From Verrucomicrobiota bacterium (GTDB lineage Bacteria; Verrucomicrobiota; Verrucomicrobiia; Palsa-1439): a DNA stretch of 44,450 nt. Below are positions 9,435 to 27,026 of this stretch, piece by piece. The position numbers and the translations under genes were made by a program. The DNA is taken from assembly GCA_041306525.1 (NCBI GenBank), contig JBFZFE010000063.1, positions 1 to 44,450 of the forward strand, in the 5' to 3' direction. How positions within the stretch are numbered: position 1 is the stretch's first letter; the number at the start of each line of letters is the position of its first letter. The notes below the pieces were generated by a model. The model was not told the DNA's origin. It did not search any database and saw nothing but the letters and a program-made list of their open reading frames with translations.

Positions 9435-9472
9435 AATGTCGGGATGCTAATGTCACCACCCCGCCCCGTCAA

Positions 9473-9628: not shown

Positions 9629-11506
9629 ATGTGTGGCATCATTGGCTACATCGGCAAGAAACCTGCCCAATCCATCATCATTGACGGTCTGCGCCGTCTC
9701 GAATATCGCGGCTATGATTCCGCAGGCATTTGCACCCTGAACAAGGGGCAAATCGTGGTGCGCAAGAAAAAGGGCCGCATCGATGAACTCGCCAGTCTCG
9801 TCCGCAAGCAACCCGCGACCGGCAACTGCGGCGTCGGCCACACTCGTTGGGCCACGCACGGCGCCCCCACTGATGACAACGCCCATCCGCATACTGATCA
9901 ATCCGGCAAACTCGTCCTCGTCCACAACGGCGTCATCGAAAACCACCAGCAACTCAAGGATCGCCTCCTTGCTCAGGGCCACAAGTTCAAATCCCAGACC
10001 GACACGGAAGTGCTCGCTCATCTGGTGGGAGCGCATTACGACAGTATCGTGGCCGGTAAGCAGGCAGCAGACGGTAACGACGGCCATGACCACTCCCCGC
10101 TGCTGACTGCCGTGCGGCGTGCGTTGAAGGAAGTCGTTGGCACCTACGGCATCGCCGTGCTCCACAGCGATTATCCCGATCACATCATTGGCGCCCGCCG
10201 CGGCAGTCCCCTGCTCATCGGCGTTGGCCGGGATGAAAACTTCCTGGCCAGTGACGTCTCGGCCATCGTCGCGCACACGCGTCGCGTCGTTTACCTCAAC
10301 GATTTCGAAATTGTTTCGCTGAGCCGGGATGATTTTCAGGTCACCACCATCGAGGCAGCGACGGTCAACCCGCAGATCAAGGAGGTCGAGTTCAAGGCGG
10401 AAGATGTTGAGCGCGGCAAGTTCGCGCACTACATGCTGAAAGAGATTTTTGAGCAACCGGCCTCCGTCAAGAACGCGATGCGCGGACGCGTTGTTCACGA
10501 TGAATGCACTGCCCGGCTCGGCGGCCTGAATCTTTCCCCGGGCGAGTTGCGCGCCGTAGACCGCATGATCTTCGTCGCTTGCGGCAGCGCGCTTCATGCC
10601 GGCATGGTCGGCGAGTACTTGATGGAAGACTTGGGACGTGTGCCGACCGAATGGGAGTATGCCAGCGAATACCGGTATCGTAACGCCCCGGTTGAAAAAC
10701 ACACCCTTGTCTTTGCCATCAGCCAGTCGGGTGAAACCATTGACACCCTTGCCGCAGTGCGCGAATCCAAACGACGTGGGCATCGGACCCTCGGCATCGT
10801 CAACGCCGTCGGCTCGACCATCGCCCGCGAGGTGGACGGCGGCGTGTACATGCATGCAGGGATCGAGATCGGCGTCGCCGCTTCCAAAACCTTCACCTCA
10901 CAGATCACCATCATGACGTTGCTGGCTGTGTTGATGGGCCGGATGCGCCACCTTTCCGCCGTGCGCGGCACCGAGATTTTGCGCTGCCTGGAAAAGATAC
11001 CGCTCCAGATGGAGAAGGTGCTCGAACAAAGCGACAACATCGCCAAGATCGCCAAGAAATATTGTGAAGCGCACAGCTTCCTGTTCTTGGCCCGGCAATA
11101 CAACTATCCCATTGCCCTCGAAGGGGCGTTGAAGCTCAAGGAAATTTCCTACATTCACGCGGAAGGCTATCCGGCCGCCGAGATGAAACACGGCCCGATT
11201 GCCTTGATCGACCCCAAAACGCCTTCCGTCTTCATCTGCCCGAAGGACGGTGTTTACGAGAAGGTGATGGCCAACATTGAAGAAGTGAAAGCCCGCAAAG
11301 GTCCCGTCATTGTTGTGGCGACGGAGGGCGACAAAGACATCGCCAAGCATGCCGATGACGTGATTTACATCCCGGAGACGCTTGATTGCCTGAGTCCCCT
11401 GCTCACGGTTGTCCCTCTCCAACTGCTCGCGTATCACATCGCAGTGGCTCGCGGTTGCGATGTGGATAAGCCAAGAAACCTGGCCAAGAGCGTGACGGTC
11501 GAGTAA
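9629..11506 (+). CDS. glmS: Glutamine--fructose-6-phosphate aminotransferase (isomerizing)
   Basis: The start was set at ATG 9629 so the protein begins MCGIIGY, giving the obligatory N-terminal Cys nucleophile. AGGAG lies 8 nt upstream. Two SIS domains are present and the C-terminus is canonical (DKPRNLAKSVTVE). Confidence 0.97.
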   Translation: MCGIIGYIGKKPAQSIIIDGLRRLEYRGYDSAGICTLNKGQIVVRKKKGRIDELASLVRKQPATGNCGVGHTRWATHGAPTDDNAHPHTDQSGKLVLVHNGVIENHQQLKDRLLAQGHKFKSQTDTEVLAHLVGAHYDSIVAGKQAADGNDGHDHSPLLTAVRRALKEVVGTYGIAVLHSDYPDHIIGARRGSPLLIGVGRDENFLASDVSAIVAHTRRVVYLNDFEIVSLSRDDFQVTTIEAATVNPQIKEVEFKAEDVERGKFAHYMLKEIFEQPASVKNAMRGRVVHDECTARLGGLNLSPGELRAVDRMIFVACGSALHAGMVGEYLMEDLGRVPTEWEYASEYRYRNAPVEKHTLVFAISQSGETIDTLAAVRESKRRGHRTLGIVNAVGSTIAREVDGGVYMHAGIEIGVAASKTFTSQITIMTLLAVLMGRMRHLSAVRGTEILRCLEKIPLQMEKVLEQSDNIAKIAKKYCEAHSFLFLARQYNYPIALEGALKLKEISYIHAEGYPAAEMKHGPIALIDPKTPSVFICPKDGVYEKVMANIEEVKARKGPVIVVATEGDKDIAKHADDVIYIPETLDCLSPLLTVVPLQLLAYHIAVARGCDVDKPRNLAKSVTVE

Positions 11507-11510
11507 CCGG

Positions 11511-12215
11511 CTATCTGATTTCCGGCCGGCTGACGGCGGGGGTCGAGGCGGTGTAAATGGTTGCCGAGATCCCCTCGCCGGCGGCACCGGCAAGACCAAG
11601 TTGCTGGCCGGGGAACGGAAATGTGGCGTGGAGCAGGAACATTTCCTTCTGGTCGGAGAACTTGAGCAGAGCTTTGCCCGCAAAAGGAGCGCTGCGTTCG
11701 CCGACAAGCACTTTGCCGCGGCAAACCGTGTCCAAGGTGACCAAGTTGCCGGCGATGGACCTGTCGCCCTTGAACTGCGTGAGGCCTTGCAGGGCGACCT
11801 CGCTGAAGGTCTCGAAGATGATGCGAAAATTCAGTGCGGCAAACTTTTGGGCCCAAACGCCACCGGGGATGGTATCGAACATGCCGTATTTCCGTGCCGA
11901 ATTGGTGATTTGGACAGTGAACGCGCCGTTCTGGGTGACGTGGATTTTTTCATCAAGCACGTCGAGTTGCCCCTTGAAACCAACTTTGCCCTCCACATTT
12001 TTGCCGCACCAGAAACTGGGGTGCCGGCTGCCTTGCTGGTCAAGAATCATATACACGATGTACGGACGCGGGTTGCGGCTCATGTCGAACGCGCCACTGA
12101 CGTGTTCCATCATCTTCTCTTGTTCGGTGACCGAGAATGCTTTCTTCTTTTCGGCGGCGGAGACCGAAAATGTGACGAACAGCAACAGCAGGAGCTGAAT
12201 GGGGATTGCTCGCAT
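11511..12215 (-). CDS. Hypothetical secreted protein
   Basis: 234 aa. N-terminal signal peptide MRAIPIQLLLLLFVTFSVSAAE. It lies 3 nt downstream of the preceding ORF. No family recognised. Confidence 0.6.
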   Translation of the reverse strand: MRAIPIQLLLLLFVTFSVSAAEKKKAFSVTEQEKMMEHVSGAFDMSRNPRPYIVYMILDQQGSRHPSFWCGKNVEGKVGFKGQLDVLDEKIHVTQNGAFTVQITNSARKYGMFDTIPGGVWAQKFAALNFRIIFETFSEVALQGLTQFKGDRSIAGNLVTLDTVCRGKVLVGERSAPFAGKALLKFSDQKEMFLLHATFPFPGQQLGLAGAAGEGISATIYTASTPAVSRPEIR

Positions 12216-12218
12216 GGC

Positions 12219-13343
12219 TCAATTCCTTTGCCGCTTGTCGGCCACGCCCGAGGTTTTGTTTGGAATGGCGGGCGGGTTTGGCGTTCCTTGGGTGTCCACC
12301 AACACCACGTAACCGTCCCGACCGCCCCCGTTCTTCGGCTGCACGGCGTGGCGGATGTTGGTCGGGAACCGACGACTCCATTTCTGATCCACCTGACCGG
12401 GGACAAGGTCATGGGCGCCACCATGGCCACGACCCGCAAGGCGCAGCCCGCTGGCGTTTGGCGTCAAGTTGGCGATGCGGACGTTGTTCAGGTCGGGGGT
12501 GAAGATCGTGAAGAACGGTCCGCCCTTGGCCATGGCGAATTCATCCGTACGATGTTCGACGTACCAAGGGGGCACCCAAGCGTCATGGCTTTCGACGAAA
12601 CCGGTCCAGCCGCCGCCGGTAACGGCGACCTCCCCGTTCGGAAGCCGGTACATGTCATAAATGTTGATGAGGGTTGGAATATCGCTGGTGGGCAAATAGC
12701 CGACATAGCGGGTGAAGGACGGGACGTCCATCGTTTCCGAAGTTGAACTGCTGAAACCGCCACACTTGGCCGGCAAGCGCAAGTCGTAGGGCTGCTGGCC
12801 GAGAACAGTGTTGCCGCCATCCGACCAGGCGGTAAGGGTAAGCTTCCCATCCTCACCAATGCGGATACTGGTCACGGGGGAATCTGCCACGAGGCGCAAC
12901 TGGTCGACACCAACAATGGGACCGGTCCACCCGTACGCGGTCCAGACCTGTTTCCCATTGGCGTCCACCTTATAGAGGTAAGGGTTCACATAGGGCTCCA
13001 AACCCGTTGCTGAGCGGTAACTGCCACCGAAGTACATGGCGACGGATTTCGGATCCAACGCCATGTTGGAACCGCTGATTTCCAGCGTCGGGCCGTCGGT
13101 CACGCTGCCGTTGTGGTCAATGTAGAAAAGGTTGTCACCGCGCCGACACAAGACCGAACCGTCGTTGCGCGGGAAAATGTTGGCGGCGCCATGCTTGAAC
13201 CGAACGGCCCAGACAACGCTGCGTTGGTCAGCAGAAATCTTCAGGACAAAGCCATCTGATCCCGCCTCGCGAACGCGCCCCTTCGCATCTGGCTTGAGCG
13301 CTTCCGGGTGGGGAACAAGCGCTGACTTCACGTTCTTGGTCAA
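12219..13343 (-). CDS. Hypothetical protein, beta-rich. Possibly the C-terminal part of a frameshifted larger gene.
   Basis: 374 aa ORF starting at a TTG with no signal peptide. The frame is open upstream to 13388 with no ATG. See the finding on the frame break at 13343-13391. Confidence 0.55.
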   Translation of the reverse strand: MTKNVKSALVPHPEALKPDAKGRVREAGSDGFVLKISADQRSVVWAVRFKHGAANIFPRNDGSVLCRRGDNLFYIDHNGSVTDGPTLEISGSNMALDPKSVAMYFGGSYRSATGLEPYVNPYLYKVDANGKQVWTAYGWTGPIVGVDQLRLVADSPVTSIRIGEDGKLTLTAWSDGGNTVLGQQPYDLRLPAKCGGFSSSTSETMDVPSFTRYVGYLPTSDIPTLINIYDMYRLPNGEVAVTGGGWTGFVESHDAWVPPWYVEHRTDEFAMAKGGPFFTIFTPDLNNVRIANLTPNASGLRLAGRGHGGAHDLVPGQVDQKWSRRFPTNIRHAVQPKNGGGRDGYVVLVDTQGTPNPPAIPNKTSGVADKRQRN

Positions 13344-13347
13344 CGCA

Positions 13348-13914
13348 TCAAAGTGCGGTCCCTTTATCCCCCGAGTTGATCGTCGCGGTCATGGGGGCTG
13401 TCATCATCGGGGCTTCGCCGCTGATTTCATCAATCTCAGGAGTGATGTATTTTGACCCAGCGCCGGTCGAACTGTTCTTCTGCCCCGCCGCGACACTGCT
13501 GACGCTCTGTTCCATCAGCTTGTCGAGCTTCGCGTTAGCTGTGCGGGCAATGCCGATCTCATGGAACGCCAGATGGATGAGCCGTTCGCCGCAGTAGTCG
13601 TGCAGGAGGAATACATTCGAGTCATTTGTTCCCGGAACACGTGACAACCAGATGTCACCGGGGTTCTTCGGGGTGAACCACTTGATTCCTTCATAGTGAC
13701 CGGGACGTCCGAACCCGACGATCTTGCCGCGTTCGTCCTTTACCGGCAGGTTGGCGAACCAGAGCTGCCCCTGCTGGCTGTGTTCCTGGCCGGTGGCAGC
13801 ATCACGCCATGTCACCTCAGCATTGAGATACTTGGGCGGGGTGGTTTCGTAGCCCTGGGCGCCCACAGCAAGCAAACCGGCCAGCAACGCAAGAATGATT
13901 ATCCGGGAACGCAT
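13348..13914 (-). CDS. Hypothetical secreted protein. Possibly the N-terminal part of a frameshifted larger gene.
   Basis: 188 aa. Signal peptide MRSRIIILALLAGLLAVGAQG. It ends 4 nt before the TTG of the next ORF, which is in a different frame. Confidence 0.55.
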   Translation of the reverse strand: MRSRIIILALLAGLLAVGAQGYETTPPKYLNAEVTWRDAATGQEHSQQGQLWFANLPVKDERGKIVGFGRPGHYEGIKWFTPKNPGDIWLSRVPGTNDSNVFLLHDYCGERLIHLAFHEIGIARTANAKLDKLMEQSVSSVAAGQKNSSTGAGSKYITPEIDEISGEAPMMTAPMTATINSGDKGTAL

Positions 13915-14901: not shown

Positions 14902-15798
14902 GTGACAACTCAAGCACAACTCACGCGCTTTTCGCCGGTCAAGGTCAACCTGTACCTGCGCATCGTTGGCAAACGCGTCGATGGGTACCATGAGCTTGAG
15001 ACAGTCATGTTGCCGGTGCAGTTCGGTGACCGGCTGACGTTTGAGCCACACGATGCCGGCATCGTGCTGGCGTGTGATCATCCGTCGCTGCCGACCGACG
15101 ACACCAATCTGGTTCTCAAAGCCGCTAAACTGCTGGCCCAGGAGCATGGCGTCCGCCAAGGCGCGAAGATCACGTTGCAGAAACGTGCGCCACTGGCCGC
15201 CGGTGTGGGCGGCGGCAGCAGCAACGCCGCGACGGCTTTGCGCGGGCTGAATGAACTTTGGAAATTGAATCTGCCGACGTCGGCACTCGGCAAGCTCGCG
15301 GCGCAACTTGGCTCGGACATCAACTTCTTCCTACAGGACGGGGCCGCCGTCTGCCGCGGGCGAGGCGAACAGGTGCAACCGATTCCGTGCAGGCTCTCCG
15401 CGCATGTGCTGTTGGTGACCCCGGGATTCGGCATTTCAACGCCGTGGGCCTACGCGGCATGGGCACAGGCTGCGAGTCGATTGACAGTTGCGCCGCCGGA
15501 CGTTAGTCTGCTGGCGCGTTCGTTGGCCGAGGATGACTTGGCTGGAGTCAGTGCTGCGTTGTTTAACTCCTTGGAAGCGCCGTCGGTTGGGAAATTCCCC
15601 GTTCTGGATTTGCTCAAACGCGCCATGCGCACCAGCGGCGCCACGGGCGCATTGATGAGCGGGAGCGGCGCAACGGTTTTCGGTTTGTTTGCCGAAAAAT
15701 CAGCCGCCGAACGATGCGCGAATCAGATGCGAGAGGATTTTGGACCGAGCCTGTGGACAGAAGTGACCGGCTCGGCAGCAGGTTTGGTTGCCCGGTAG
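14902..15798 (+). CDS. ispE: 4-diphosphocytidyl-2-C-methyl-D-erythritol kinase
   Basis: 298 aa with a GTG start. N-terminal pattern PVKVNLYLRIVGKRVDGYHEL and GHMP kinase motif PLAAGVGGGSSNAA. Confidence 0.92.
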   Translation: MTTQAQLTRFSPVKVNLYLRIVGKRVDGYHELETVMLPVQFGDRLTFEPHDAGIVLACDHPSLPTDDTNLVLKAAKLLAQEHGVRQGAKITLQKRAPLAAGVGGGSSNAATALRGLNELWKLNLPTSALGKLAAQLGSDINFFLQDGAAVCRGRGEQVQPIPCRLSAHVLLVTPGFGISTPWAYAAWAQAASRLTVAPPDVSLLARSLAEDDLAGVSAALFNSLEAPSVGKFPVLDLLKRAMRTSGATGALMSGSGATVFGLFAEKSAAERCANQMREDFGPSLWTEVTGSAAGLVAR

Positions 15799-15863
15799 TG
15801 TAATTGGTAACACAGCGGCCTTTGGAGCCGTATTTCCTGGTTCGAGTCCAGGCCGGGCAGCCA
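15789..15863 (+). tRNA. tRNA-Gln (anticodon TTG)
   Basis: Cloverleaf folded by hand. Acceptor TGCCCGG/CCGGGCA (U1:A72, typical of bacterial tRNA-Gln), D stem GTGT/ACAC, anticodon stem GCGGC/GCCGT. Anticodon loop is CTTTGGA, T arm is CCTGG-TTCGAGT-CCAGG, discriminator is G, and CCA is encoded. Total 75 nt. Confidence 0.9.
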
Positions 15864-15882: not shown

Positions 15883-15898
15883 TGGCATGCCACCTGCT
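15883..15898 (+). promoter_or_regulatory. Candidate sigma-54 (-24/-12) promoter upstream of the MshEN-domain gene and pilB
   Basis: TGGCAT-gccac-CTGCT has GG (15884-15885) and GC (15896-15897) at the canonical 12-nt register of the TGGCAC-N5-TTGCW consensus. It lies 27 nt upstream of ATG 15925, and GGAGG at 15916-15920 falls in the predicted short leader. The same half-sites recur at 18603-18618. Confidence 0.5.
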
Positions 15899-15924
15899 AT
15901 CTTTGCCCTCGGCTTGGAGGCCAA

Positions 15925-16830
15925 ATGAGTCAGACGGCAGGAAACATCTCAGAAGAGGAATTCCAGCAACTGCTGCGCACGGTGGAAATGTTCGAGGCCA
16001 TCACCGAGGCGCAACCGGACGATTACCAGTCCTTGGAAATCCTGAAAGAGGCTTACACCAAGCTGGGGCGCAAACCAGACCGGCTTCGTGCCTCCCGGAT
16101 GCTGGCCAGCGCCTATCAGACAATGGGCCATGTATCCCTGGCCATTCTTGAATGCGAAGCCATCCTCCAGGAAACCCCTGCTGATGCGGCCATCAAGGAA
16201 CTGCTTGCCGGCCTGAACAGTTCCACAACAATGGCCGCTACCGCCACTCCTGCGGCGCCCTCGTTGGAAAAGGACTCCAAGCCAACACCACCTGCTGGTG
16301 AACCAGCGGGGGCGCCCAGTATCGCGGTCCTGCGTCAGCACGCCGAGGAGGGTGACCGGCTGCTGGCAAATCTGCTGGTTGCCGAAAAGCTGGCAACGCA
16401 ACAGGCAATCGAACCCTTGCTGCAGAAGTTGCACGCGATGCGCGCTGAAGCCGGGGGACGGACCCAGCCCTTTTCACTGCTCCAGCTCATTGCCAACGAG
16501 CAGTACGCCAAGCTCGACGATTTGCTCACGGTCGTGCTGGACAAGTCCAACCTGCCGTACGTGCCGTTGTCTGTGTATGACGTTGATCGGGACAACGCGA
16601 GCCTGTTGCCGCTGGATTTTTGCTGGCAACACTGCCTGATTCCCTTCGATGTGATCAGCCGTTCCGTTCTGATCACGACCGCCAATCCCTTTGACATGCC
16701 ATCGCGTCTGCAGGTCGAACAGATGCTGAACCGAAATGTCTTCTGGTACGTCAGTCACCCCCAGGAAATCATCACCGCCCTGCGGCGCGTGCACGGGTTG
16801 GACACCAGCAAGACACCACAGGCTGCTTGA
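15925..16830 (+). CDS. Stand-alone GspE_N/MshEN-domain protein with an N-terminal TPR-like helical region (no ATPase domain)
   Basis: 301 aa. The C-terminal ~140 aa follow the T2SSE N-terminal domain pattern (LLANLLVAEKLATQQAIEPLL..., LPYVPLSVYDVDRDNASLLPLDFCWQHCLIPFDVISRSVLITTANPFD, VFWYVSHPQEIITALRRVHG). The N-terminal ~95 aa are helical and TPR-like, joined by a Pro/Ala linker. The TGA shares its last base with the pilB ATG. Confidence 0.75.
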   Translation: MSQTAGNISEEEFQQLLRTVEMFEAITEAQPDDYQSLEILKEAYTKLGRKPDRLRASRMLASAYQTMGHVSLAILECEAILQETPADAAIKELLAGLNSSTTMAATATPAAPSLEKDSKPTPPAGEPAGAPSIAVLRQHAEEGDRLLANLLVAEKLATQQAIEPLLQKLHAMRAEAGGRTQPFSLLQLIANEQYAKLDDLLTVVLDKSNLPYVPLSVYDVDRDNASLLPLDFCWQHCLIPFDVISRSVLITTANPFDMPSRLQVEQMLNRNVFWYVSHPQEIITALRRVHGLDTSKTPQAA

Positions 16831-18539
16831 TGAAGTCTTTCGGAGAACGCATCGCCGACACCTTGATTGCTGATGGGGTCCTCACCCAGAAGCAGCTGAC
16901 CGAAGTTCTGGAACTCCAGAAAAAGCAGGGCGGCCAATTATTGAAGCTCCTGCTGGAGCGTCGCTTTGTGACTGACCAGGACATGATGGTCAGCATGGGC
17001 CGTTGCTTGGGGACTCCCCCGGTATCGCTCGCCAAGATGCGTGTGCCAGCCGAGGTCGTGGAACTGATCCCCAAGGACATGGCACAGAACTACAAAATGG
17101 TGCCAGTCGCCCGCTTCGGCAAGAAACTGTTCGTCGCGATGGCCGATCCGTTGAACGTGATCGCACTGGATGATGTGCGCCGCGTCCGCCCGAACATGCA
17201 GATCGTGCCGTTGATCACCACCGAAAAGGCAATTGGCGATTTCCTGAACAACGCCAACGCGCAAATGGGCGGCGGCATCGATGAAATCCTCAAGGATGTG
17301 GATGTCTCGGATGTCGAGCTGGCCAAGGACAAGCAGGAAGAGATCAACCTCGATCAGCTCATCGAAAGCAGCGAGGAAGGCCCCGTCATCAAGCTGGTCA
17401 ACCTGATTCTGGTGCAGGCGATCAAGGACCGGGCCAGTGACATCCACATGGAGTCATTTGAGAAGCAGTTGCGGCTCCGCTATCGCATTGACGGTGTTCT
17501 GTACGATTCCACCGCCCCGCCCAAGTCTTTGCAGTCGGCCATCACCTCCCGCATCAAGATCATGGCCAACCTTGATATCGCGGAGCGGCGCCTCCCGCAG
17601 GACGGTCGTTTCCGCATCAAACTGGCGGGTCGCGATGTGGACTTGCGCGTCTCACTGCTGCCAACAGTGCACGGCGAAAAAATCGTCATGCGCGTGCTCG
17701 ACAAGGGCACCCTGAATCCCAATCTCGAAGCACTCGGTCTTGACCCGGATGACCTCAACAAGTTCCGGCAGGCCATCGACGCGCCCCACGGGATGATGCT
17801 GATGACCGGGCCAACCGGCTCCGGCAAAACATCCACCTTGTACGCAGTCCTCACGCAGTTGAACCAGCCCGACGTCAATATCATCACCGTCGAAGACCCC
17901 GTCGAGTACCAGATGATGGGAGTGAACCAAGTCCAAGTGAAGCCAGAAATCGGGCTGACCTTCGCCAGCGGACTGCGCTCCATTCTCCGTCAGGATCCCG
18001 ACATCGTCATGGTTGGCGAAATTCGCGATTCTGAGACTGCTGATATCGGGGTGAAAGCCGCCCTGACGGGGCACTTGGTCCTTTCCACGCTCCACACCAA
18101 TGATGCCCCCGGCGCCATTGCACGTCTGGTGGACATGGGAATCGAGCCGTTTCTGGTCAGTTCCTCAGTACTGATGATTTGCGCCCAGCGTTTGCTCCGC
18201 AAAGTCTGCCCTCACTGCAAAGAAGTGGAACAAGTTCCGACCGACCTGCTCCGTCGTTTGGGAGTGACCCCAAAAGAAGCTTCCGAATCCACTTTCTACC
18301 ATGGTCGCGGTTGTTCCCGGTGCAAGGAAACCGGGTTTATGGGACGCATGGCAATTCTGGAGGTATTGCTTATCAGCGATGCGATGCGCGAGCTCATTCT
18401 CAGCAATACCAGCGCCAAAGTACTTCGCGAACTGGCCTTGAAAGAAGGCATGAAGACGCTTAGCATGGCGGGCATCGCCAAGGCCAAGGCTGGCTTGACT
18501 GCGTTGGAAGAAGTGCTCCGAGTTACCGGTAATGCGTGA
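16830..18539 (+). CDS. pilB: Type IV pilus assembly (extension) ATPase, PilB/GspE family
   Basis: An N-terminal GspE_N domain is followed by Walker A GPTGSGKTSTLY, Walker B/Asp box ILRQDPDIVMVGEIRD and His box LTGHLVLSTLHTNDA. A tetracysteine motif is present (CPHCKE...CSRCKETGFMGR). I prefer ATG 16830; the track start 16827 is a TTG. Confidence 0.9.
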   Translation: MKSFGERIADTLIADGVLTQKQLTEVLELQKKQGGQLLKLLLERRFVTDQDMMVSMGRCLGTPPVSLAKMRVPAEVVELIPKDMAQNYKMVPVARFGKKLFVAMADPLNVIALDDVRRVRPNMQIVPLITTEKAIGDFLNNANAQMGGGIDEILKDVDVSDVELAKDKQEEINLDQLIESSEEGPVIKLVNLILVQAIKDRASDIHMESFEKQLRLRYRIDGVLYDSTAPPKSLQSAITSRIKIMANLDIAERRLPQDGRFRIKLAGRDVDLRVSLLPTVHGEKIVMRVLDKGTLNPNLEALGLDPDDLNKFRQAIDAPHGMMLMTGPTGSGKTSTLYAVLTQLNQPDVNIITVEDPVEYQMMGVNQVQVKPEIGLTFASGLRSILRQDPDIVMVGEIRDSETADIGVKAALTGHLVLSTLHTNDAPGAIARLVDMGIEPFLVSSSVLMICAQRLLRKVCPHCKEVEQVPTDLLRRLGVTPKEASESTFYHGRGCSRCKETGFMGRMAILEVLLISDAMRELILSNTSAKVLRELALKEGMKTLSMAGIAKAKAGLTALEEVLRVTGNA

Positions 18540-18602
18540 TCGAATATGCAAAATTGAGAGTTTTGGCTCGCAGCGGAGCACATTAATGCCTAAACAGACG
18601 GT

Positions 18603-18618
18603 TGGCATAGGTACTGCT
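18603..18618 (+). promoter_or_regulatory. Candidate sigma-54 (-24/-12) promoter upstream of the 738-aa gene, mglA and mglB
   Basis: TGGCAT-aggta-CTGCT has GG (18604-18605) and GC (18616-18617) in the canonical register. It sits in a lower-GC 114-nt intergenic region, 36 nt upstream of ATG 18654, with GGAGAG at 18646-18651. The half-sites are identical to the element at 15883-15898. Confidence 0.5.
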
Positions 18619-18653
18619 AATAAACCGAACCGTAGTTCAAGAGACGGAGAGAA

Positions 18654-20870
18654 ATGAAATTTCCTTTCTTCAAAGGGCAGAAGCCAGAGCAAAAGCCGAC
18701 GACAACTGTGTTCGTGCCACCCCGAGCCGTCACGAACAAACCAACGCCCCCCGCCCCCGTCGTCCCGCTCCCCCCCATGCCGGTGGGCGGTGGTGATTCT
18801 GTCCCGCTGCGACTCAGCTCGATTTTGTCGCAACTTCCCCGCGATTTGTTTCAAAACGAGCATCGCGCACAACTCGCCAACTTGACCCTTTCTGTTCCCT
18901 CCCGACTGGTGCTCCCCCAGCTTTCGTCCGGCAAGGTTTCCATCGCCCTGGCCGATCTGGCGCCTGCGTTTCCCGCCAATGTGTTGAACCGCTCCGTTCT
19001 CGCCACCGCAGGGCAACACCCTGTTCTGTTGCCATTGCAGGAGATGATCGCCTCCCTGCCTCCCGAAGCATTCAAGGTCAAACACGAGGCGGAGATTTCG
19101 ATGGACGAACCTGAGCTGGCGACATTGCCGGCTTTGTTTGATGAGGAAGCCACTCGCCGAGCAGAAGCCGTTGCCCGCAAGGCGGTCGCAATACCAACCC
19201 CCATCGAGGAGCCCGCTGCCATCCGTGCTGCGGCTGCCCCCCCCTCACCGGCGGCACCGGCGCGGGCAATGACAGCACCGGCGCCCGTCCGTACCCCGGA
19301 GCCAGTTACGGCGGCAACTCCAGCAGTGGAAGCACAGAAGATCAACATCCCAAGTGGTATTGAGATCCCCACGACAGTCCAAGTCTCGTTGCGCAGTTTG
19401 GTCAACAACATGCCTGAGAAGCTGTTTGTCTGTCCGAAGGCAGACCTCTGGCAGCAGACCGACTTGGATGTAACCGTGCCGTTGCCTCTGGAGCCGATTC
19501 TGTCTCAGATCCAGAGCGCCCGCGTTACCGTGCCAATCAAGAACATTCTCCCCCTCATCCCCGCTGCCATCCTGGTGCAACCGACACCCTTGCTGGACAC
19601 AGAAGTGATGGTGGTGCCGCTCTACGAAGTAATCCCGCAATTGCCTCCTGAGCTGTTCACCGCCCAACTGAGCGCGACGCGTCCGCAGGATCAACAAGCG
19701 ATTGATGCGGACAGTCCCGCGCCGTTCCAGGAGCGCGCCAAACCTGCCCCGCTGCCGGCCAAGCCGGTCGAACCCGAAAAGCCGGCTGTGGTGTCCGAAG
19801 TAACGGAGAAGCAACTGGAAGAGGAAATGCCAATCTTCTCTGAAAAACACCCTTCCCGGCTGCTTTCAGAGACGACACGCATCCAATTGCCCGCAGACTT
19901 GGCAGCCCGCGCCAAGGCGGCCTCTCCGTCCCCGGTCGCTCCGGCCCCTGGCATGGCAGCAGTTCCCGTGGCGCCCCCCGAACGCTTGATGCCTCCCGCC
20001 CCGGTGGAACCACCAAAGCCGGTCGAACCTGTCGCCCCCGTCGCGCCCGTCGTCGCCGAGCCAATCAAACCGGTCGAACCGCCAGCGCCGGCAGTCGAGT
20101 TGCCGGCAGCACCAGTCCCGACTGCAGTCCCGGAGCCGATCAGGCCAGTCGCCCAAGAACCCGAAACCCAGCCCCTGACAGAGGCACCGGCGATCGAAGA
20201 GGACGAGGCTGTTTCCGCCGAGATCGCCGAGGAGGAGGCCCTCGCCGCGGGCGCAGGTTCGCTCGACGAGCGCAAGTTCCTCATCAACATCAATCGCTGT
20301 ACCGTCGAAGACCTGCTGCGCATCGAGGGAGTTGGCCGCAAGCTGGCGCAACGCATCATCGAGTTCCGCACCAATCACGGGCACATCTCGTCGATTGAGG
20401 AATTGCGTCTGGTGCCCGGTGTCGGACGCAAGACTTACCGGGCGTTGGCGGGAGTGGAATCACGTTCGCTGAACCGATTGCTTGGTGTTCCCGACGATCG
20501 CGAACTGACATTGCAGGAAGTGATCAAGCTGACCGGTTCATTGAAGGGCATTGAAGGTTGCATGTTGGCGATGTCCGACGGCCTGTTCCTGACCGGCCAA
20601 CTGCCGGCCGGGTTTGACCAGGAAGCCATCAGCGTGTTTGCGCCCCAGTTGTTCAAGAAGATGGGCCGTTACGTCAAGGAATTGGGCGTCGGTCAGGTGC
20701 GCCGCTTCACGTTGTTCACGGATGAACGTCCCATCAGTATTTTCCGCGCGGCCGACGTTTATCTGATCATCATCCACGATACGCGTCACTTCAGCAAACG
20801 CCTGCTCCGCCAGTGCGAGCGGATCAGCCAGGAAATCGCGCGGCTCTGCCGTCAACGCACCGTTGTGTAA
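18654..20870 (+). CDS. Multidomain cytoplasmic protein: duplicated unknown module, Pro-rich linker, ComEA-like helix-hairpin-helix, C-terminal Roadblock/LC7 (MglB-like) domain
   Basis: 738 aa, no TM segment or signal peptide. Residues 541-600 (FLININRCTVEDLLRIEGVGRKLAQRIIEFRTNHGHISSIEELRLVPGVGRKTYRAL) match the ComEA-type double HhH pattern. Residues ~618-733 (IKLTGSLKGIEGCMLAMSDGLFLTGQLPAGFDQEAISVFAPQL...RRFTLFTDERPISIFRAADVYLIIIHD) fit the Roadblock/LC7 pattern. The stop lies 11 nt before mglA. Confidence 0.8.
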   Translation: MKFPFFKGQKPEQKPTTTVFVPPRAVTNKPTPPAPVVPLPPMPVGGGDSVPLRLSSILSQLPRDLFQNEHRAQLANLTLSVPSRLVLPQLSSGKVSIALADLAPAFPANVLNRSVLATAGQHPVLLPLQEMIASLPPEAFKVKHEAEISMDEPELATLPALFDEEATRRAEAVARKAVAIPTPIEEPAAIRAAAAPPSPAAPARAMTAPAPVRTPEPVTAATPAVEAQKINIPSGIEIPTTVQVSLRSLVNNMPEKLFVCPKADLWQQTDLDVTVPLPLEPILSQIQSARVTVPIKNILPLIPAAILVQPTPLLDTEVMVVPLYEVIPQLPPELFTAQLSATRPQDQQAIDADSPAPFQERAKPAPLPAKPVEPEKPAVVSEVTEKQLEEEMPIFSEKHPSRLLSETTRIQLPADLAARAKAASPSPVAPAPGMAAVPVAPPERLMPPAPVEPPKPVEPVAPVAPVVAEPIKPVEPPAPAVELPAAPVPTAVPEPIRPVAQEPETQPLTEAPAIEEDEAVSAEIAEEEALAAGAGSLDERKFLININRCTVEDLLRIEGVGRKLAQRIIEFRTNHGHISSIEELRLVPGVGRKTYRALAGVESRSLNRLLGVPDDRELTLQEVIKLTGSLKGIEGCMLAMSDGLFLTGQLPAGFDQEAISVFAPQLFKKMGRYVKELGVGQVRRFTLFTDERPISIFRAADVYLIIIHDTRHFSKRLLRQCERISQEIARLCRQRTVV
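18801..19658 (+). repeat. Internal duplication of a ~90-aa protein module within the 738-aa gene (copy 1 at 18801-19073, copy 2 at 19377-19658)
   Basis: Aligned by eye. LRLSSILSQLPRDLF pairs with VSLRSLVNNMPEKLF. LSVPSRLVLPQLSSGKVSIALADLAPAFPANVL pairs with VTVPLPLEPILSQIQSARVTVPIKNILPLIPAAIL. VLLPLQEMIASLPPEAF pairs with VVVPLYEVIPQLPPELF. The copies are divergent at nucleotide level. Confidence 0.7.
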
Positions 20871-20881
20871 GGAGTTGGACC

Positions 20882-21595
20882 ATGTCGATCATCAATTACG
20901 CGAACAAAGAAGTGCAGTTCAAAATCGTCTATTACGGTCCCGCCCTTTGCGGCAAGACGACCAATCTGGCCTACATTCACAGCCAAGTTGACGACACCAA
21001 CAAAGGTGAACTCGTCTCCCTGGCAACGGCCGCGGATCGCACGCTGTTTTTCGATTTCCTGCCGTTGAACGCGGTGGTCATCAAGGGATTCAAGACCAAG
21101 TTCCAGCTTTACACAGTCCCCGGACAGGTCATCTACAACGCCACTCGCCAACTCGTTTTGCGCAGCGTTGATGGCGTCGTGTTTGTCGCCGATTCGCAAT
21201 GGGACAAAATGGAGGAAAACGTCGAGAGCTTCAAAAACCTGCAGGAAAACCTTTCCCGCCAAGGGGCGACTCTCGACAACATCCCGTACATCATTCAGTA
21301 CAACAAACGGGACATGCCGAATCCCGCGCCCATCCATTACATGGAGTTTCTGCTCAACAATCGCAAGACGCGCGTCCCGAGTTTCCAAGCGGTTGCCACC
21401 AGCGGCGAAGGCGTGTTCGGCACGCTCAACGCCATCTCACGTCTGCTGCTGCAGAAATTCGCCCGCGAAATGGAAGCTGCCGCCAATCGGCAAAAGATGG
21501 GGCCTTCCCCCGCCTCCTCATCTTTCTCGGGCATCGCCTCTGGCGTGGGGCGAACTCCACCGGCAGGCCAACCCCCGACCCGCCCACGCTTTTAA
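20882..21595 (+). CDS. mglA: Ras-like small GTPase MglA (mutual gliding-motility protein A family)
   Basis: Starting at ATG 20882, with AAGGAG 8 nt upstream, gives MSIINYANKEVQFKIVYYGPALCGKTTNL. Also present are ADRTLFFDFLP, LYTVPGQV, FVADSQ and QYNKRD. This is near-collinear with Myxococcus MglA as I recall it. The 5' extension of the track ORF (20813) overlaps the upstream gene and was rejected. Confidence 0.93.
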   Translation: MSIINYANKEVQFKIVYYGPALCGKTTNLAYIHSQVDDTNKGELVSLATAADRTLFFDFLPLNAVVIKGFKTKFQLYTVPGQVIYNATRQLVLRSVDGVVFVADSQWDKMEENVESFKNLQENLSRQGATLDNIPYIIQYNKRDMPNPAPIHYMEFLLNNRKTRVPSFQAVATSGEGVFGTLNAISRLLLQKFAREMEAAANRQKMGPSPASSSFSGIASGVGRTPPAGQPPTRPRF

Positions 21596-21613
21596 TCTCA
21601 GATCGAAAGCGCC

Positions 21614-22090
21614 ATGAACGCGACACCAATTGTCACCATCGAAGCGGCCGAACGGTTGCTTAACACGCTGGAAACATTCCTTGATGAGTCGGAAGCCAAC
21701 TTCAGCATCGTGATTGACCGGGGCGGCTCCGTGCTCAGCCAAGCAGGACGGGTCCCCGACACGATCGACCCCACCATTGTGGGCGCCCTCGCGGCGGGCA
21801 GTTTCGCCGCCACCAAGGAACTGGCCACCCGCGTTGGCGAGGAGGAATTCACCGCCTTGCACCAGCAAGGGCAACGCGCTCAAATCCTGATGTCAGCCGT
21901 GGACAGCGATGTTGTTCTCGTCACCGTGTTTGATGAACACACGACGCTTGGCCTGGTCAAATTCTACTCCACCCGCACGGTCAAACGCCTTGCCACGGTT
22001 CTCTCTGATCTGCGGGGCGAACAGGCACCGACCGAACCCGTCTTCACCATGGCGGATGTGGACAATGCCTCGAACATGTTCGGGAAATAA
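21614..22090 (+). CDS. mglB: Roadblock/LC7-domain GTPase-activating protein MglB
   Basis: 158 aa, the canonical MglB size, 18 nt downstream of mglA. Roadblock pattern (FSIVIDRGGSVLSQAGRVPDTIDPTIVGALAAGSFAATKELA...AQILMSAVDSDVVLVTVFDEHTTLGLV). Confidence 0.85.
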   Translation: MNATPIVTIEAAERLLNTLETFLDESEANFSIVIDRGGSVLSQAGRVPDTIDPTIVGALAAGSFAATKELATRVGEEEFTALHQQGQRAQILMSAVDSDVVLVTVFDEHTTLGLVKFYSTRTVKRLATVLSDLRGEQAPTEPVFTMADVDNASNMFGK

Positions 22091-23416: not shown

Positions 23417-24673
23417 ATGCACACAAGGAGATATTTACTCGGTTTCGCCATGCTGCTGGCCCTGATTGGCTGCAGCCGCTCCCCCGAACGCTCGTTCGAG
23501 GAGGGCGTGCGCCTTTACCAAGCGCAGGACTACCCCAAGGCGGCAGCGGCACTCGAAAAGGCCATGGCCACCGCACCGCCAACCCCGCAAGTCCTCACCA
23601 TGATCGGGGTCTGCCGTCTGCACGCCGGGAAAACTGAGGCTGCCATGCAGAGATTTCGCGCGGCAATTCAACTCGATCCCAACCACCTGCCGGCACGCTA
23701 TAACCTCGCCCTCGCCCAACTCGAAGCCGGTCAGACCGAGGCTGCTGCCAACGCCCTGCGCCAACTCGCGCAACTTACTGGTGTCCCATCCGAGATCAAC
23801 CTCCCGCTTGCGACCGCCTATAACAATCTCGCCGTCGCCGCCGTGCGTTTGCGCGACATCAAACGTGCGGAGCAATACTTTGAACTCGCGGTCAAAGCTG
23901 ACCCGGGGTCTGTTGCCGCACGCAATCTCAACATGCTTCGCACGCCACCGGCCCCGCCGCCGCAAACCACAACTTCTGTCGCTCCGATCCTGCGGCCGGC
24001 AACCCCGCCCACCAACACGATTCCCCCGCAACCAGCCACCAAAAGCCAGCCCGCACCTCCCCCCACTCCGGCAACGCCCGTTGTCACGAACAACATTGTG
24101 GCAGCCCCGCAGACCGCTTCACCACCACCCAAAACAGAGCAGCCCGCCTCCGCGGTCGGCGCCAAACGCCGGCCCCCGACAGCTTCCCGCTCCCTGCCAA
24201 CCGGCAACCGCGACGAGGCACGCAAGTATTTTGCGGAGGCGGTCAAGTTGCAGCAGCAATCGAAGCAGGCCAATGCCATCGCCTATTACACACAGGCCAT
24301 CAAGCTGGACCCCTCCTATACGCAAGCCTATTACAACCTCGCCATCAGCTATCGCGACAGCCGTCAGTTCGATCGGGCCTTTGAGAACTACGAGCTGGCC
24401 TTGATGAGTGATCCGAAATTCCACGATGCCCGTTACAATTACGCCATCCTGCTTCAGGATCAGGGCTACACCTTCGATGCGCTCGAGCAGTACGAGAAAA
24501 TACTCCATGCGAACCCGAATGACGCCGCTGTGCATCTGACGGTGGCCGCGCTTTGCGCTCGGGATCGGTCGTTGCGTCCAAAGGCCCGGGAACATTACGA
24601 GACCTATCTGAAGCTGGTTCCCAATTCGCCGCTGACCCGCGACATCCGCGCTTGGCTCGACCAGAACCGCTAA
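23417..24673 (+). CDS. TPR-repeat lipoprotein with a central Pro-rich linker
   Basis: The in-frame ATG at 23417 gives MHTRRYLLGFAMLLALIGCS, a lipobox LIGC. TPR repeats lie on both sides of a ~90-aa Pro/Thr/Ala-rich segment. The 5' part of track ORF 22907..24673 is antisense to the zinc-ribbon gene and was rejected. Confidence 0.8.
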   Translation: MHTRRYLLGFAMLLALIGCSRSPERSFEEGVRLYQAQDYPKAAAALEKAMATAPPTPQVLTMIGVCRLHAGKTEAAMQRFRAAIQLDPNHLPARYNLALAQLEAGQTEAAANALRQLAQLTGVPSEINLPLATAYNNLAVAAVRLRDIKRAEQYFELAVKADPGSVAARNLNMLRTPPAPPPQTTTSVAPILRPATPPTNTIPPQPATKSQPAPPPTPATPVVTNNIVAAPQTASPPPKTEQPASAVGAKRRPPTASRSLPTGNRDEARKYFAEAVKLQQQSKQANAIAYYTQAIKLDPSYTQAYYNLAISYRDSRQFDRAFENYELALMSDPKFHDARYNYAILLQDQGYTFDALEQYEKILHANPNDAAVHLTVAALCARDRSLRPKAREHYETYLKLVPNSPLTRDIRAWLDQNR

Positions 24674-25140
24674 GGGGACTTCCTCTCGGCGGGCAGCAGA
24701 AACCAGGTCAAAGTTCTCCCCAATAACGACGTTTTGGCCGCCGGCCGAGTCAGCGCGTGAAATGGTCCTTCCGCAAAGAACGCCAAGATGATGCAGGCCA
24801 ACATGAAGGCGCGCAACCCACCGGCCAGCGAGCCTGCCGGCCGCGCCTCACCCCAGCGCTCCATGGCATGTTCCTGGATTCGGCTCCGAAACTGCCCAAC
24901 AAGCAGCTTCGCTGCCACCAGCAGCAAAATGAAACTTAGCCCGGTGGTTGTCTGGCCCGTCACTCGGCTGGCCTCGGCCAGCGCTTGACTGGTCCAGTGG
25001 AACAAACCAAAACCGGTGAGTCCAAAAACCAAGACCCCCAGGGTGCGTGGCAGTTCCATCGGCAGCCCGCGGCGATAGCCGCGCTTGGCCCACCACAAAC
25101 ACCACGTCACAACCACCAGATCCAGAAAACCCAATCGCAT
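24670..25140 (-). CDS. CvpA-family (colicin V production) membrane protein
   Basis: Starting at the internal ATG 25140 gives MRLGFLDLVVVTWCLWWAKRGYRRGL..., with about 4 TM segments resembling CvpA. The track start 25254 would leave only 11 nt to the divergent kinase gene. The start choice is uncertain. Confidence 0.55.
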   Translation of the reverse strand: MRLGFLDLVVVTWCLWWAKRGYRRGLPMELPRTLGVLVFGLTGFGLFHWTSQALAEASRVTGQTTTGLSFILLLVAAKLLVGQFRSRIQEHAMERWGEARPAGSLAGGLRAFMLACIILAFFAEGPFHALTRPAAKTSLLGRTLTWFLLPAERKSP

Positions 25141-25265
25141 TCGGAGCGCAGCTTGTCGCAGTCCTCCCAGGAAGGCAAGCGCACTCCCGAGGCTGCCCTC
25201 TGGACAGCGGCACAACTCGAACATAGCGTAGCCAGCGACCCATACCGTCGCCATTCGGACATTCC

Positions 25266-27026
25266 ATGCCTGATCTGGATCTTTTGGTTCGTCTATTTGA
25301 CGCCTTGCCGCAAGCGGCCATCCTGGCCAACCGTGCGGGGCTGATCTTGTACGTCAGCCGGCGTGCGGCAGAGATGCTGAACTGCCGTCCCGAGGAGTTG
25401 ACCGGCCAGCAGGCTGCCTGCTTGGTGCCCGAACGCGTCGCGCAGAATCATGTTGAGCGTTGCCGGGCGTGGTTTGACCATCCGCACTGGCTCAAAATGG
25501 GCGCACCGAATGGGATTTCGGTACGCCGGCGCGACGGCACGGAGCTACCCGTTGAAATCGTTCTCGCTCCATGGCCGCTGGACGGGGAGATGGCCGCCTT
25601 GGCGCTGTTGCGGGACGCCTCTGACTACAAGCGGATCGCGTCTTCATTGCGCGAGAGCGAAGAACGCTACCGGCAACTGCTCGCCGCCGTGACGGATTAC
25701 GTCTATTGCGTCAAGGTGGAGAATGGTCGCGCGGTGGATTCCGAGCATGGCCCGACGAGTGTGGCGGTGACGGGCTATCAGCCTGCGGAGTACAAGGCCG
25801 ACCCCTACTTGTGGCACCGGATGGTTCACCCCGATGACCGTCCCGCCGTGACACAGCAGGCCATGCGGGCCTTGGCCGGCATCAACGTTCCACCTTTGGA
25901 ACACCGGATCTTTCACAAAGACGGCTCCGTTCGCTGGTTGCGCAATGTCATCGCCATCCGGCGAGACCAACAGGGCAATGTGGTCGGCTATGACGGGCTG
26001 ATCTCGGATATCACGCAGCGCAAGAAACTGGAGGAAGAATGGCGCAAACTCTCCAGCGCGGTGGAACAGACCGATGACGTGGTGGCCATCACCGACCGGC
26101 AAGGGATCGTCGAGTATGTGAACCCCTCTTTCGAAAGACATACCGGATACCCAAAGGAGGAAGTCATTGGCCAGACGCTGCGCATCCTGAAGTCGGGGCA
26201 ACATGGACCGGACTTCTATGACCGCCTCTGGGCGACGGTATTGGCCGGGGCGGTGTTTCGCGGAGAATTCGTCAACCGGCGCCGCAGTGGCGAGGTGTTT
26301 ATCGCGGACCAGAGCATCACACCGATGAAGGATGCTACCGGGCAAGTCTCGCATCTGGTGGCGGTCTGGCGTGATGTCACCGAGCGCAAGCAACTGGAGC
26401 AGGCCATTCTCGAAATCAGTGACCGCGAACAGGCGCGCATCGGCCAGGACCTGCACGACGGACTGTGTCAGCATCTCGTCGGCACTGCTTTTGCCGTGCA
26501 GCATCTTGCCCAAAGGTTACCGGCGCGCACGGCACAGTATGTGGCGATCGGCGTGGAGCGCATCGGCAAACTCATTGACGAAGCGATCGAACAGGCGCGC
26601 ACCATGGCGCGTGGGCTATATCCAGTCAAGTTGGAGTCCGACGGCTTCATGGCGGCACTGGAGGATTTGGCAATGCGTTCGCAGCAGCTCTTCAAAGTCC
26701 CCTGCTCCTTTGAATGCGTGCAAACGATACGGGTAAACGACAACAATGCCGCGGTGCACCTGTTTCGCATCGCCCAGGAGGCCGTCACCAATGCCGCAAA
26801 GCACGCCCATGCCAGCCGGATCCAGATCCGTCTGGTGGAGGAGGATGCGCGGCTGACCTTGTCCGTGGAGGATGACGGTTGTGGAATGCCCGAGCAGGCG
26901 GGTTCGCCGACAGGAATGGGGCTGCGGATCATGCATTACCGGGCCCGCATGATCGATGGGGATTTGCAGATCAGGTCCGCGCCAGAAGGCGGCACGATTG
27001 TGCGCTGTTCATGGCGTCCGAATTGA
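25266..27026 (+). CDS. Multi-PAS sensor histidine kinase (HisKA_3 / NarX-DegS type)
   Basis: 586 aa. About three PAS modules separated by coiled linkers (ESEERYRQLL, QRKKLEEEWRKL, ERKQLEQAILE). The HisKA_3 H-box is EQARIGQDLHDGLCQHLVG, and a C-terminal HATPase_c is present (DDGCGMP, GMGLRIMHYRA). No TM segments, so it is probably cytoplasmic. Confidence 0.88.
   Translation: MPDLDLLVRLFDALPQAAILANRAGLILYVSRRAAEMLNCRPEELTGQQAACLVPERVAQNHVERCRAWFDHPHWLKMGAPNGISVRRRDGTELPVEIVLAPWPLDGEMAALALLRDASDYKRIASSLRESEERYRQLLAAVTDYVYCVKVENGRAVDSEHGPTSVAVTGYQPAEYKADPYLWHRMVHPDDRPAVTQQAMRALAGINVPPLEHRIFHKDGSVRWLRNVIAIRRDQQGNVVGYDGLISDITQRKKLEEEWRKLSSAVEQTDDVVAITDRQGIVEYVNPSFERHTGYPKEEVIGQTLRILKSGQHGPDFYDRLWATVLAGAVFRGEFVNRRRSGEVFIADQSITPMKDATGQVSHLVAVWRDVTERKQLEQAILEISDREQARIGQDLHDGLCQHLVGTAFAVQHLAQRLPARTAQYVAIGVERIGKLIDEAIEQARTMARGLYPVKLESDGFMAALEDLAMRSQQLFKVPCSFECVQTIRVNDNNAAVHLFRIAQEAVTNAAKHAHASRIQIRLVEEDARLTLSVEDDGCGMPEQAGSPTGMGLRIMHYRARMIDGDLQIRSAPEGGTIVRCSWRPN

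Follow-up and report, generated by a model that had tools for sequence, protein, structure and literature searches.

MglA-GTP is the effector-binding on-state of a Ras-like small GTPase, and MglB is its GTPase-activating protein (GAP). Roadblock domains associate with one another and provide platforms on which small GTPases act, MglB/MglC and Ragulator being examples; in the ATPase PilB, the N-terminal domains have regulatory and docking functions. In Myxococcus xanthus, MglA brings PilB to the machine by way of SgmX, FrzS, and SopA (PMC11580455), and RomR, MglC, and MglB form a scaffolded complex (PMC10329633). Group 1 MglA proteins, whose hallmarks are an arginine in G2 and TVPGQ in G3, can be found with two Roadblock genes within four genes, only one of them coding for a co-evolving MglB (Wuichet and Sogaard-Andersen 2014, PMC4316618). 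Here, we describe a 44,450-nucleotide (nt) stretch of DNA from a Verrucomicrobiota bacterium (contig JBFZFE010000063.1, hereafter the window), in which genes for a PilB-type ATPase, a protein with tetratricopeptide repeat (TPR)-like helices and an MshEN domain, a large Roadblock protein, MglA, and MglB form one five-gene module.

The five genes, which we call g1 to g5, all lie on the forward strand. The gene for the TPR-MshEN protein (g1, 301 amino acids [aa], positions 15,925 to 16,830) shares 1 nt of its stop codon with the start of the PilB-type ATPase gene (TGATG; g2, 569 aa from the ATG, 16,830 to 18,539); an alternative TTG start of g2 at 16,827 would give a 4-nt overlap. After a 114-nt spacer come the 738-aa scaffold protein (g3, 18,654 to 20,870), MglA (g4, 237 aa, 20,882 to 21,595) after an 11-nt gap, and MglB (g5, 158 aa, 21,614 to 22,090) after an 18-nt gap. 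The first-pass annotation of this DNA had described five co-oriented genes in two tight sub-operons, and the coordinates and spacings that it gave all agree with the list of open reading frames (ORFs). On the basis of the gene order and domain content presented below, we consider it reasonably probable that MglA and MglB control the PilB of the window, in its recruitment or its activity, through g3 as scaffold and g1 as adaptor.

One line of evidence for this proposal is the conservation of the gene order. A genome scan covering one genome per GTDB species, made with an alignment of close relatives of g3, reached only the clade of the window, in which g3 carries a helix-hairpin-helix (HhH) pair. 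It returned 28 loci, all labelled as metagenome-assembled genomes (MAGs) of Verrucomicrobiia or Verrucomicrobiota, with one 3-kb contig binned elsewhere, and the order g1-g2-g3-g4-g5 was kept in every one of the 28 loci with enough DNA. A metagenome census anchored on g1 confirmed 437 stretches; we retained 80, 17 with a g1 identity of 51 to 64% and 63 with an identity of 32 to 38%. Among the loci with enough DNA downstream of g1, PilB was present in 58/58, a protein with the D domain described below in 41/42, a C-terminal Roadblock in 29/29, MglA in 28/28, and MglB in 23/23. The sole exception (L041) harbors an in-frame deletion inside g3: in its 147-aa ORF (11,738 to 12,181), the first D1 motif (...SILSQLPSQFF) runs straight into the middle of the Roadblock domain (KKIGRYMREL...). 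We therefore rejected this "Roadblock-only" g3 as a natural minimal form; the deletion, on a 226-kb contig, may be real or an assembly artefact.

Close g3 homologs (40 to 45% identity) show the same five-gene order, and the flanking genes ispE, pyrF, and trmB are common among them as well. Taken alone, these shared flanks would fit an adjacency that is accidental or merely inherited as local synteny. The census refutes this reading, since the five-gene order is also found between unrelated flanks with g1 at only 32 to 38% identity, and junctions that overlap or nearly do so are retained: most loci have g1 overlapping g2, and all have 10 to 16 nt between g3 and mglA. Two further loci (L005 and L037) harbor all five genes between other flanks, with a large protein lacking HhH. 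Flank clustering served as a guide only, because of shadow ORFs in GC-rich DNA. Neither chance nor inherited synteny alone can thus account for the adjacency; an order conserved in no relative was one of the outcomes that the first-pass annotation had named as refuting its proposal. Where the low-identity branch is named, it belongs to Chthoniobacterales (class Spartobacteria in the NCBI taxonomy) or Verrucomicrobiota; named carriers of the module overall are Verrucomicrobiia and Chthoniobacterales. We found no module outside Verrucomicrobiota among the named records, most metagenome matches being without taxonomy.

Both sub-operons are preceded by a box with the -24/-12 arrangement of sigma-54-type promoters, whose consensus comprises GG and GC elements (TGGCAC-N5-TTGCW). 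The first box (TGGCATGCCACCTGCT, 15,883 to 15,898, forward strand) lies 27 nt 5' of the g1 ATG, with a GGAGG ribosome-binding site at about 15,914 between the two, and the second (TGGCATAGGTACTGCT, 18,603 to 18,618, forward strand) lies in the g2-g3 spacer, 36 nt 5' of the g3 ATG. A Shine-Dalgarno sequence follows each of them. The pattern TGGCAY-N6-TGCT has just these two matches on both strands of the window, against 0.29 expected. The box before g3 was found in 33/33 loci of the HhH clade, 27 to 51 nt 5' of the g3 start. The one before g1 was found in most loci of this clade (38 among 99 scanned loci, with no distant-clade locus among the 38), and a related box (GGCAYGNTTCTAGCT) precedes g1 at a fixed distance in 54/57 loci of the distant, Chthoniobacterales-type clade. 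In their GG and GC elements, canonical spacing, placement, and conservation, the boxes thus agree with the sigma-54 type, and we predict that sigma-54-type promoters drive both sub-operons. Their spacing implies control by an enhancer-binding protein; no Sigma54_activat-type gene was present among the window ORFs scanned. The g2-g3 spacer showed no terminator-like site, and a terminator-like hairpin at 15,881 was reread as the palindromic part of the first box.

This layout raises the question of how closely the two halves of the module belong together. The g3-MglA-MglB trio could be a general polarity or landmark module, with PilB and g1 as co-regulated sigma-54 neighbors that are not directly coupled to it. 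In the clade of the window, the trio indeed has its own predicted promoter and a spacer of 57 to 282 nt after PilB, and two loci (L006 and L036) carry g3-mglA-mglB without g1-PilB. We nevertheless find this explanation unlikely. The scaffold gene follows g1-PilB in all but one of the 42 informative loci, no sufficiently long locus lacks MglA or MglB, and PilB and g3 are separated by at most 15 nt or overlap in the distant clade. Moreover, one locus (L038) keeps g3 with g1-PilB despite having no mglAB; there, the g3-type protein measures 1,122 aa and is followed by an FG-GAP protein in place of mglA/mglB (5,305 to 11,369). The homologs of g3 always adjoin mglA-mglB, g1-pilB, or both, and because g3 alone travels with either gene pair, it is best seen as the hub of the module.

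We next considered the five proteins one by one. Residues 1 to 193 of g4 match M. xanthus MglA structures with 245 bits and Thermus thermophilus MglA with 239 bits. A residue-by-residue alignment with M. xanthus MglA shows that g4 harbors the P-loop (GPALCGKT), the intrinsic arginine of G2 (DRTLFFDF), and a G3 that reads TVPGQ instead of DxxGQ. The mglB gene, 18 nt 3' of g4, lies well within four genes, an arrangement kept in 23/23 loci. By these motifs, g4 is a predicted GTPase, a Ras-like MglA of the Group 1 type. It differs from M. xanthus MglA by a C-terminal tail of about 40 aa (residues 195 to 237; 21,464 to 21,595), in which the motif SGIA...RR is conserved in the clade; relatives end in ...ALSGIAAAAARR, while the tail in the window reads SFSGIASGVGR plus 16 more residues. 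One idea is that the TPR-like head of g1 could bind this tail as a peptide.

The g5 protein matches Robl_LC7 (8.4e-9), and its best PDB matches are MglB proteins, with E values of 1.8e-15 to 1.5e-10 for those of M. xanthus and T. thermophilus. The best of these alignments (6izw_B, 1.8e-15) extends to residue 156 and includes the region of the C-terminal helix. The score of 69.6 against the NCBIfam MglB equivalog NF052242 did not reach the cutoff of 200; the short name of this model, GTPaseActivMglBThm, suggests a Thermus-type model, which lowers the equivalog status of g5 but not its family membership. Residues K14, R115, and K120 of M. xanthus MglB, a basic patch to which the second Roadblock protein MglC binds (PMC10329633), are present in g5 as R, K, and R. 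The MglA and MglB assignments of the first-pass annotation therefore hold.

The second gene codes for an ATPase with matches to Pfam T2SSE (1.9e-140) and MshEN (4.4e-16). Direct reading identified the motifs GPTGSGKT, DPDIVMVGEIRD, GHLVLSTLHTND, and CPHC...CSRC, and the protein has the architecture of a full-length PilB, with an MshEN N terminus, an N2 domain, and a C-terminal ATPase with Walker A and B, Asp and His boxes, and a tetracysteine motif. It scored 672.0 bits against TIGR02538 (PilB; cutoff, 675.65), with residues 8 to 566 aligned to model positions 2 to 562, and 639.2 bits against TIGR02533 (GspE; cutoff, 630.25). The latter score would be compatible with an ATPase that powers a type II secretion-like apparatus or a nonmotility type IV filament, with MglA and MglB positioning the secretion site. 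However, only the PilB model and the PilB structures align with g2 over its full length, the first ~78 residues included: the PilBs of Geobacter (584 bits) and M. xanthus (562 bits) match residues 6 to 566, while the GspE structure matches residues 80 to 567 only (449 bits). Furthermore, genes for GspF, GspL, GspM, and GspD were seen in no examined locus. We conclude that g2 is, as judged by these matches, a PilB-type extension ATPase, and we keep a secretion ATPase as an improbable, minor rival.

What surrounds the module in the distant clade bears on the same question. In Chthoniobacterales-type loci, a divergent operon upstream of the module (L100, 3,331 to 7,616; L119, 3,836 to 9,776; L037, 433 to 1,775; all on the reverse strand) contains three genes with the prepilin-type N termini FTLIE, FSLVE, and FTIVE and a fourth gene for a protein of 721 to 988 aa, with a related N terminus lacking Glu5. 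In its layout, this operon resembles a minor-pilin or pseudopilin set, and its prepilin-like genes speak for a link between the module and a filament. The large protein of L119 (988 aa) begins with GFALV, and since minor pseudopilins of the GspK type also lack Glu5, this likeness speaks for the secretion alternative. The first-pass annotation had called the PilB of the window an orphan. Within the window, this stands, with no prepilin-type N terminus among its ORFs; it does not extend to the Chthoniobacterales-type copies, which adjoin the prepilin-like genes.

Upstream of PilB, g1 combines an MshEN domain (Pfam, 2.8e-13) with a weak TPR signal and has no ATPase domain. Its AlphaFold2 (AF2) model (predicted local distance difference test [pLDDT] score, 84.6) consists of a helical TPR-like head (residues 10 to 105), a disordered linker (103 to 127), and an MshEN/GSPII domain (133 to 290). 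In Foldseek, the latter matched the GSPII-A and GSPII-B domains of PilF, the MshE N terminus of Vibrio cholerae, and the PilB N terminus of Xanthomonas citri (E values of 3.5e-6 to 8.6e-4), so that both Pfam and Foldseek back the earlier view of g1 as an MshEN-only partner of PilB. The helical head is strikingly invariant among relatives (QQLLRTVEMFEAI...DDYQSLEILKEAY), and the TPR-MshEN family comprises thousands of clusters at 90% identity. We rejected g1 as a recent duplicate of the adjoining PilB N terminus, the two being only 16% identical (E value, 0.10); rather, it is by its sequence an old paralog of PilB N termini.

MshEN domains that bind cyclic di-GMP (c-di-GMP) harbor the 24-residue motif RLGxxhhxxGhhxxxxLxxxLxxQ, which occurs twice per domain (Wang et al., PMC5013675). 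Neither the g1 family nor the PilBs of the module carry this motif in two copies. Even a relaxed form of the motif fitted 0/45 members of the g1 family. In the module PilBs (n = 85), motif I reads RIA... (10/11 positions) and motif II RLLK...C, with G3, G10, and Q24 all replaced; the PilB of the window reads QLLK at this place. We infer that c-di-GMP binding has been lost or weakened in the MshEN domains of both g1 and the module PilB.

The largest protein of the module is g3. Pfam detects an HHH_3 match (2.1e-16) and a Robl_LC7 match (1.9e-6; 28 bits, with a cutoff of 23), and the AF2 model shows an N-terminal peptide, two copies of a domain that we call D, disordered linkers rich in Pro, Ala, and Glu, the HhH pair, and a C-terminal Roadblock domain. 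D is a beta/alpha domain of about 110 aa. Its first copy (D1; residues 48 to 162; 18,795 to 19,139) has a pLDDT of 80 to 89 and four strand-helix units, as has the second (D2; residues 240 to 358; 19,371 to 19,727; pLDDT, 88 to 92), and the two are homologous (hhalign, 98.7%; E value, 2.3e-16). Searches with single sequences, with a profile, and with 29 members found no match to the D domain in Pfam, NCBIfam, or the PDB sequences at an E value of ≤10. The D-domain profile recovered 2,090 clusters at 50% identity, 1,291 of them at an E value of ≤1e-10, and 129 of the 145 best new representatives (89%) end exactly in a Roadblock domain. Conversely, all 38 proteins first found through their Roadblock end hold two or three D copies. 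These searches indicate that the conserved core of g3 is the duplicated D domain, previously undescribed, together with the C-terminal Roadblock. The D domain is not limited to this architecture, since two other proteins, P0166 (1,465 aa) and P0220 (2,283 aa), carry eight and seven D copies, respectively, and no Roadblock end; P0166 opens with a hydrophobic, signal-like segment. An exact look-up of the 738-aa protein gave nothing, yet a cluster with an identical protein exists.

A short basic-aromatic peptide at the N terminus (residues 1 to 12; 18,654 to 18,690) is conserved across the g3 superfamily (P0168 to P0204). It reads MKFPFFKGQK in the window, MRLPFFKSSK also occurs in the same clade, and MFGxIKKLFxK is found elsewhere. 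This peptide may be a membrane-targeting or docking motif.

The HhH pair of g3 (residues 539 to 610; 20,268 to 20,483) is ComEA-like, and one could imagine that the whole module is a DNA uptake (competence) device in which the HhH of g3 handles DNA while PilB extends a competence pilus. The HHH_3 score, the match to the comEA subfamily, and the GhG hairpins, which are conserved within the g3 family, fit such a device. The scores remain below the family cutoffs (45.5 against 53.1 for TIGR00426 and 48 against 152 for TIGR01259), and direct reading of g3 revealed no signal peptide, membrane segment, or hydrophobic N terminus, so that its HhH pair is expected to be cytoplasmic, unlike ComEA. In addition, no comEC, dprA, or comF gene lies near the examined loci, and the Chthoniobacterales-type branch has the same operon without HhH. 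A competence device is thus very improbable. The HhH pair is confined to the clade of the window and absent from proteins P0020 to P0038 as well as from the Chthoniobacterales-type proteins. It appears to be a clade-specific addition, with contact to cytoplasmic DNA or the nucleoid as a possible role, and the signature of the family is, from its distribution, the D domain. The first-pass annotation had presented g3 as a HhH-Roadblock protein; Pfam bears out both domains and Foldseek the Roadblock, but the HhH does not define the family.

The Roadblock domain of g3 (residues 620 to 737; 20,511 to 20,864) has the fold expected of an MglC-type adaptor. The best 50 Foldseek matches of the whole g3 model are all Roadblock folds (TMt, 0.7 to 0.8), among them Asgard Roadblock, LAMTOR/MP1-p14, dynein LC7, and MglB. 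At the sequence level, the g3 Roadblock profile matches Asgard Roadblock chains (1.9e-7); it did not retrieve MglC at an E value of ≤10.

These elements can be assembled into a mechanism. The C-terminal Roadblock of g3 would dock on the MglB dimer or on MglA-GTP, as MglC does on MglB in Myxococcus. A single protein, g3, would act both as a scaffold in the manner of RomR and as a Roadblock partner in the manner of MglC, with its D domains and N-terminal peptide placing it at a particular site in the cell. The g1 protein, presumably produced in a fixed ratio with PilB, would bind PilB or its docking site through the domain that resembles the PilB N terminus, while its conserved helical head would contact the GTPase/scaffold side. 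MglA-GTP would then license the recruitment or activation of PilB where pili extend, and the GAP activity of MglB would end it, so that the GTPase cycle would set where or when PilB extends its filament. In the module family, this GTPase input may replace the c-di-GMP input at the PilB N terminus. The first-pass annotation had suggested a self-contained switch made of MglA, two Roadblock proteins, an MshEN partner, and PilB. The order, domain, and literature checks support such a switch, and the control of PilB by the GTPase we infer from the linkage. We hold the specific contacts only tentatively. It is possible, if somewhat more doubtful, that g3 represents a new class of polarity scaffold, built from a peptide, two or three D copies, disordered linkers, and a Roadblock, which together with g1 directly and physically bridges the GTPase cycle to the PilB hexamer, with GTPase input replacing the c-di-GMP input.

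Several observations weigh against control of PilB by the GTPase. The ATPase falls just below the PilB equivalog cutoff and just above that for GspE. Because the g3-mglA-mglB trio exists without PilB, PilB may be only one client of the trio. According to the alignment, g5 has a Glu at the position of G68 in helix alpha2 of M. xanthus MglB, and its GAP contact may therefore differ. By sequence, the Roadblock of g3 is not specifically close to MglC or MglB, and archaeal Roadblock proteins come nearest to it. Finally, all members of the family come from uncultured MAGs or metagenome contigs.

How does this module compare with described systems? The MglA systems of Bdellovibrio and Thermus are more loosely similar in logic than that of Myxococcus. 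There, the SgmX/FrzS/SopA route (PMC7519303, PMC7668184, and PMC11580455) shares with our proposal a Group 1 MglA with an MglB GAP that determines where PilB engages and a TPR-containing adaptor between the GTPase and PilB. The genes of the Myxococcus route are dispersed, whereas a single operon here encodes PilB, both adaptors, and the switch. Moreover, the g1 adaptor carries an MshEN domain resembling the PilB N terminus, which SopA lacks and which is not known from SgmX either, and it has about five TPR-like helices compared to 14 TPRs in SgmX. SopA has been reported only in Myxococcales, and neither of its conserved regions resembles a characterized domain (PMC11580455). The RomR/MglC/MglB complex of M. 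xanthus is similar in having a second Roadblock protein beside MglB that is tied to a scaffold with long disorder, and g5 keeps the basic patch that MglB uses to bind MglC. In contrast to that complex, the scaffold and the second Roadblock are a single polypeptide here, g3, which has no receiver domain, carries the undescribed duplicated domain, and has a Roadblock whose profile misses MglC at the threshold given above. The module would thus parallel the SgmX/SopA and RomR/MglC/MglB systems by analogy, without homology to their adaptors.

Thermus PilF (PDB 9g1w, 8pdk, and 6ejf; PMC11731258) also has more than one MshEN/GSPII domain per pilus ATPase, and it is on its GSPII-A and GSPII-B that the MshEN domain of g1 superposes best. 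PilF carries its extra domains in cis, fused to the ATPase, and its GSPII-B is a c-di-GMP binder; g1, in contrast, is encoded on its own, has a TPR-like head, and its motif is degenerate. A single MglA with two Roadblock genes corresponds to an arrangement in the MglA survey (PMC4316618), but that survey reports neither a large multidomain Roadblock protein nor a link to PilB or MshEN, and it places Verrucomicrobia under Group 5, while the MglA of the window has Group 1 motifs. In Synechocystis, response regulators with a PATAN domain are reported to bind the pilus motor (bioRxiv 10.1101/2021.06.11.447907). A divergent gene for a REC-PATAN (PatA_N) response regulator lies by the PilB-less trio of L006 (8,763 to 9,923, reverse strand), which suggests that the trio may reach the pilus motor in another way; neither the window nor the examined five-gene loci contain a PATAN gene. 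Searches in the full texts of PMC and bioRxiv returned no description of this architecture, which the first-pass annotation had presented as a candidate undescribed module; the coverage of these searches is incomplete, and a description may have been overlooked. The module differs from the known systems in its operon organization, an adaptor that bears MshEN, a Roadblock scaffold carrying a new domain, its degenerate c-di-GMP site, and the predicted sigma-54 control.

The module is flanked by tRNA-Gln (15,789 to 15,863) on its upstream side, while the stop codon of g5 abuts a convergent trmB, followed by tRNA-Phe; in Rfam, only these two tRNAs matched. Pfam scans of the likely genes showed that the rest of the window codes for housekeeping functions (arg genes, glgC, glmS, pyrF, ispE, trmB, trpE, hisF, corC, surA, a sulfatase, floA/nfeD, panE, and pst), along with one PAS histidine kinase. 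These scans detected no pil, romR, or frz domain, in agreement with the first-pass annotation. The FloA flotillin-like gene and the NfeD gene form a pair on the reverse strand (37,074 to 39,992) unrelated to the module. Four consecutive ORFs of 269, 234, 374, and 188 aa (10,898 to 13,914, reverse strand) have no Pfam match, and the 188-aa ORF opens with a signal-peptide-like segment. A related locus (L003) has a second T2SSE-family ATPase (637 aa; 18,829 to 20,742) some 6 kb 3' of the operon, by CvpA-like genes; this ATPase shares 41% identity with the C-terminal two-thirds of PilB. At the equivalent place, the window has a CvpA-like gene (24,670 to 25,254) followed by the PAS-HisKA_3 kinase gene (25,266 to 27,026), not a second ATPase.

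So far, the route from MglA to PilB is known in outline and only in Myxococcus, through the proteins SgmX, FrzS, and SopA, which are restricted to that lineage and whose genes are scattered. A motor, a switch, and two adaptors in one deeply conserved operon provide a short list for binding, GTPase, ATPase, and structure work. The module also defines two unannotated families, the ~110-aa D domain and the TPR-MshEN protein, and it suggests that the input at the N-terminal domain of PilB could shift from c-di-GMP to a GTPase. Carriers from the Chthoniobacterales are common in soil metagenomes, and regulated pilus-like filaments may matter for soil Verrucomicrobiota. If g3 and g1 indeed form such a bridge to PilB, these highly abundant soil bacteria would harbor a minimal, reconstitutable five-protein system for the control of a type IV filament motor by a small GTPase.

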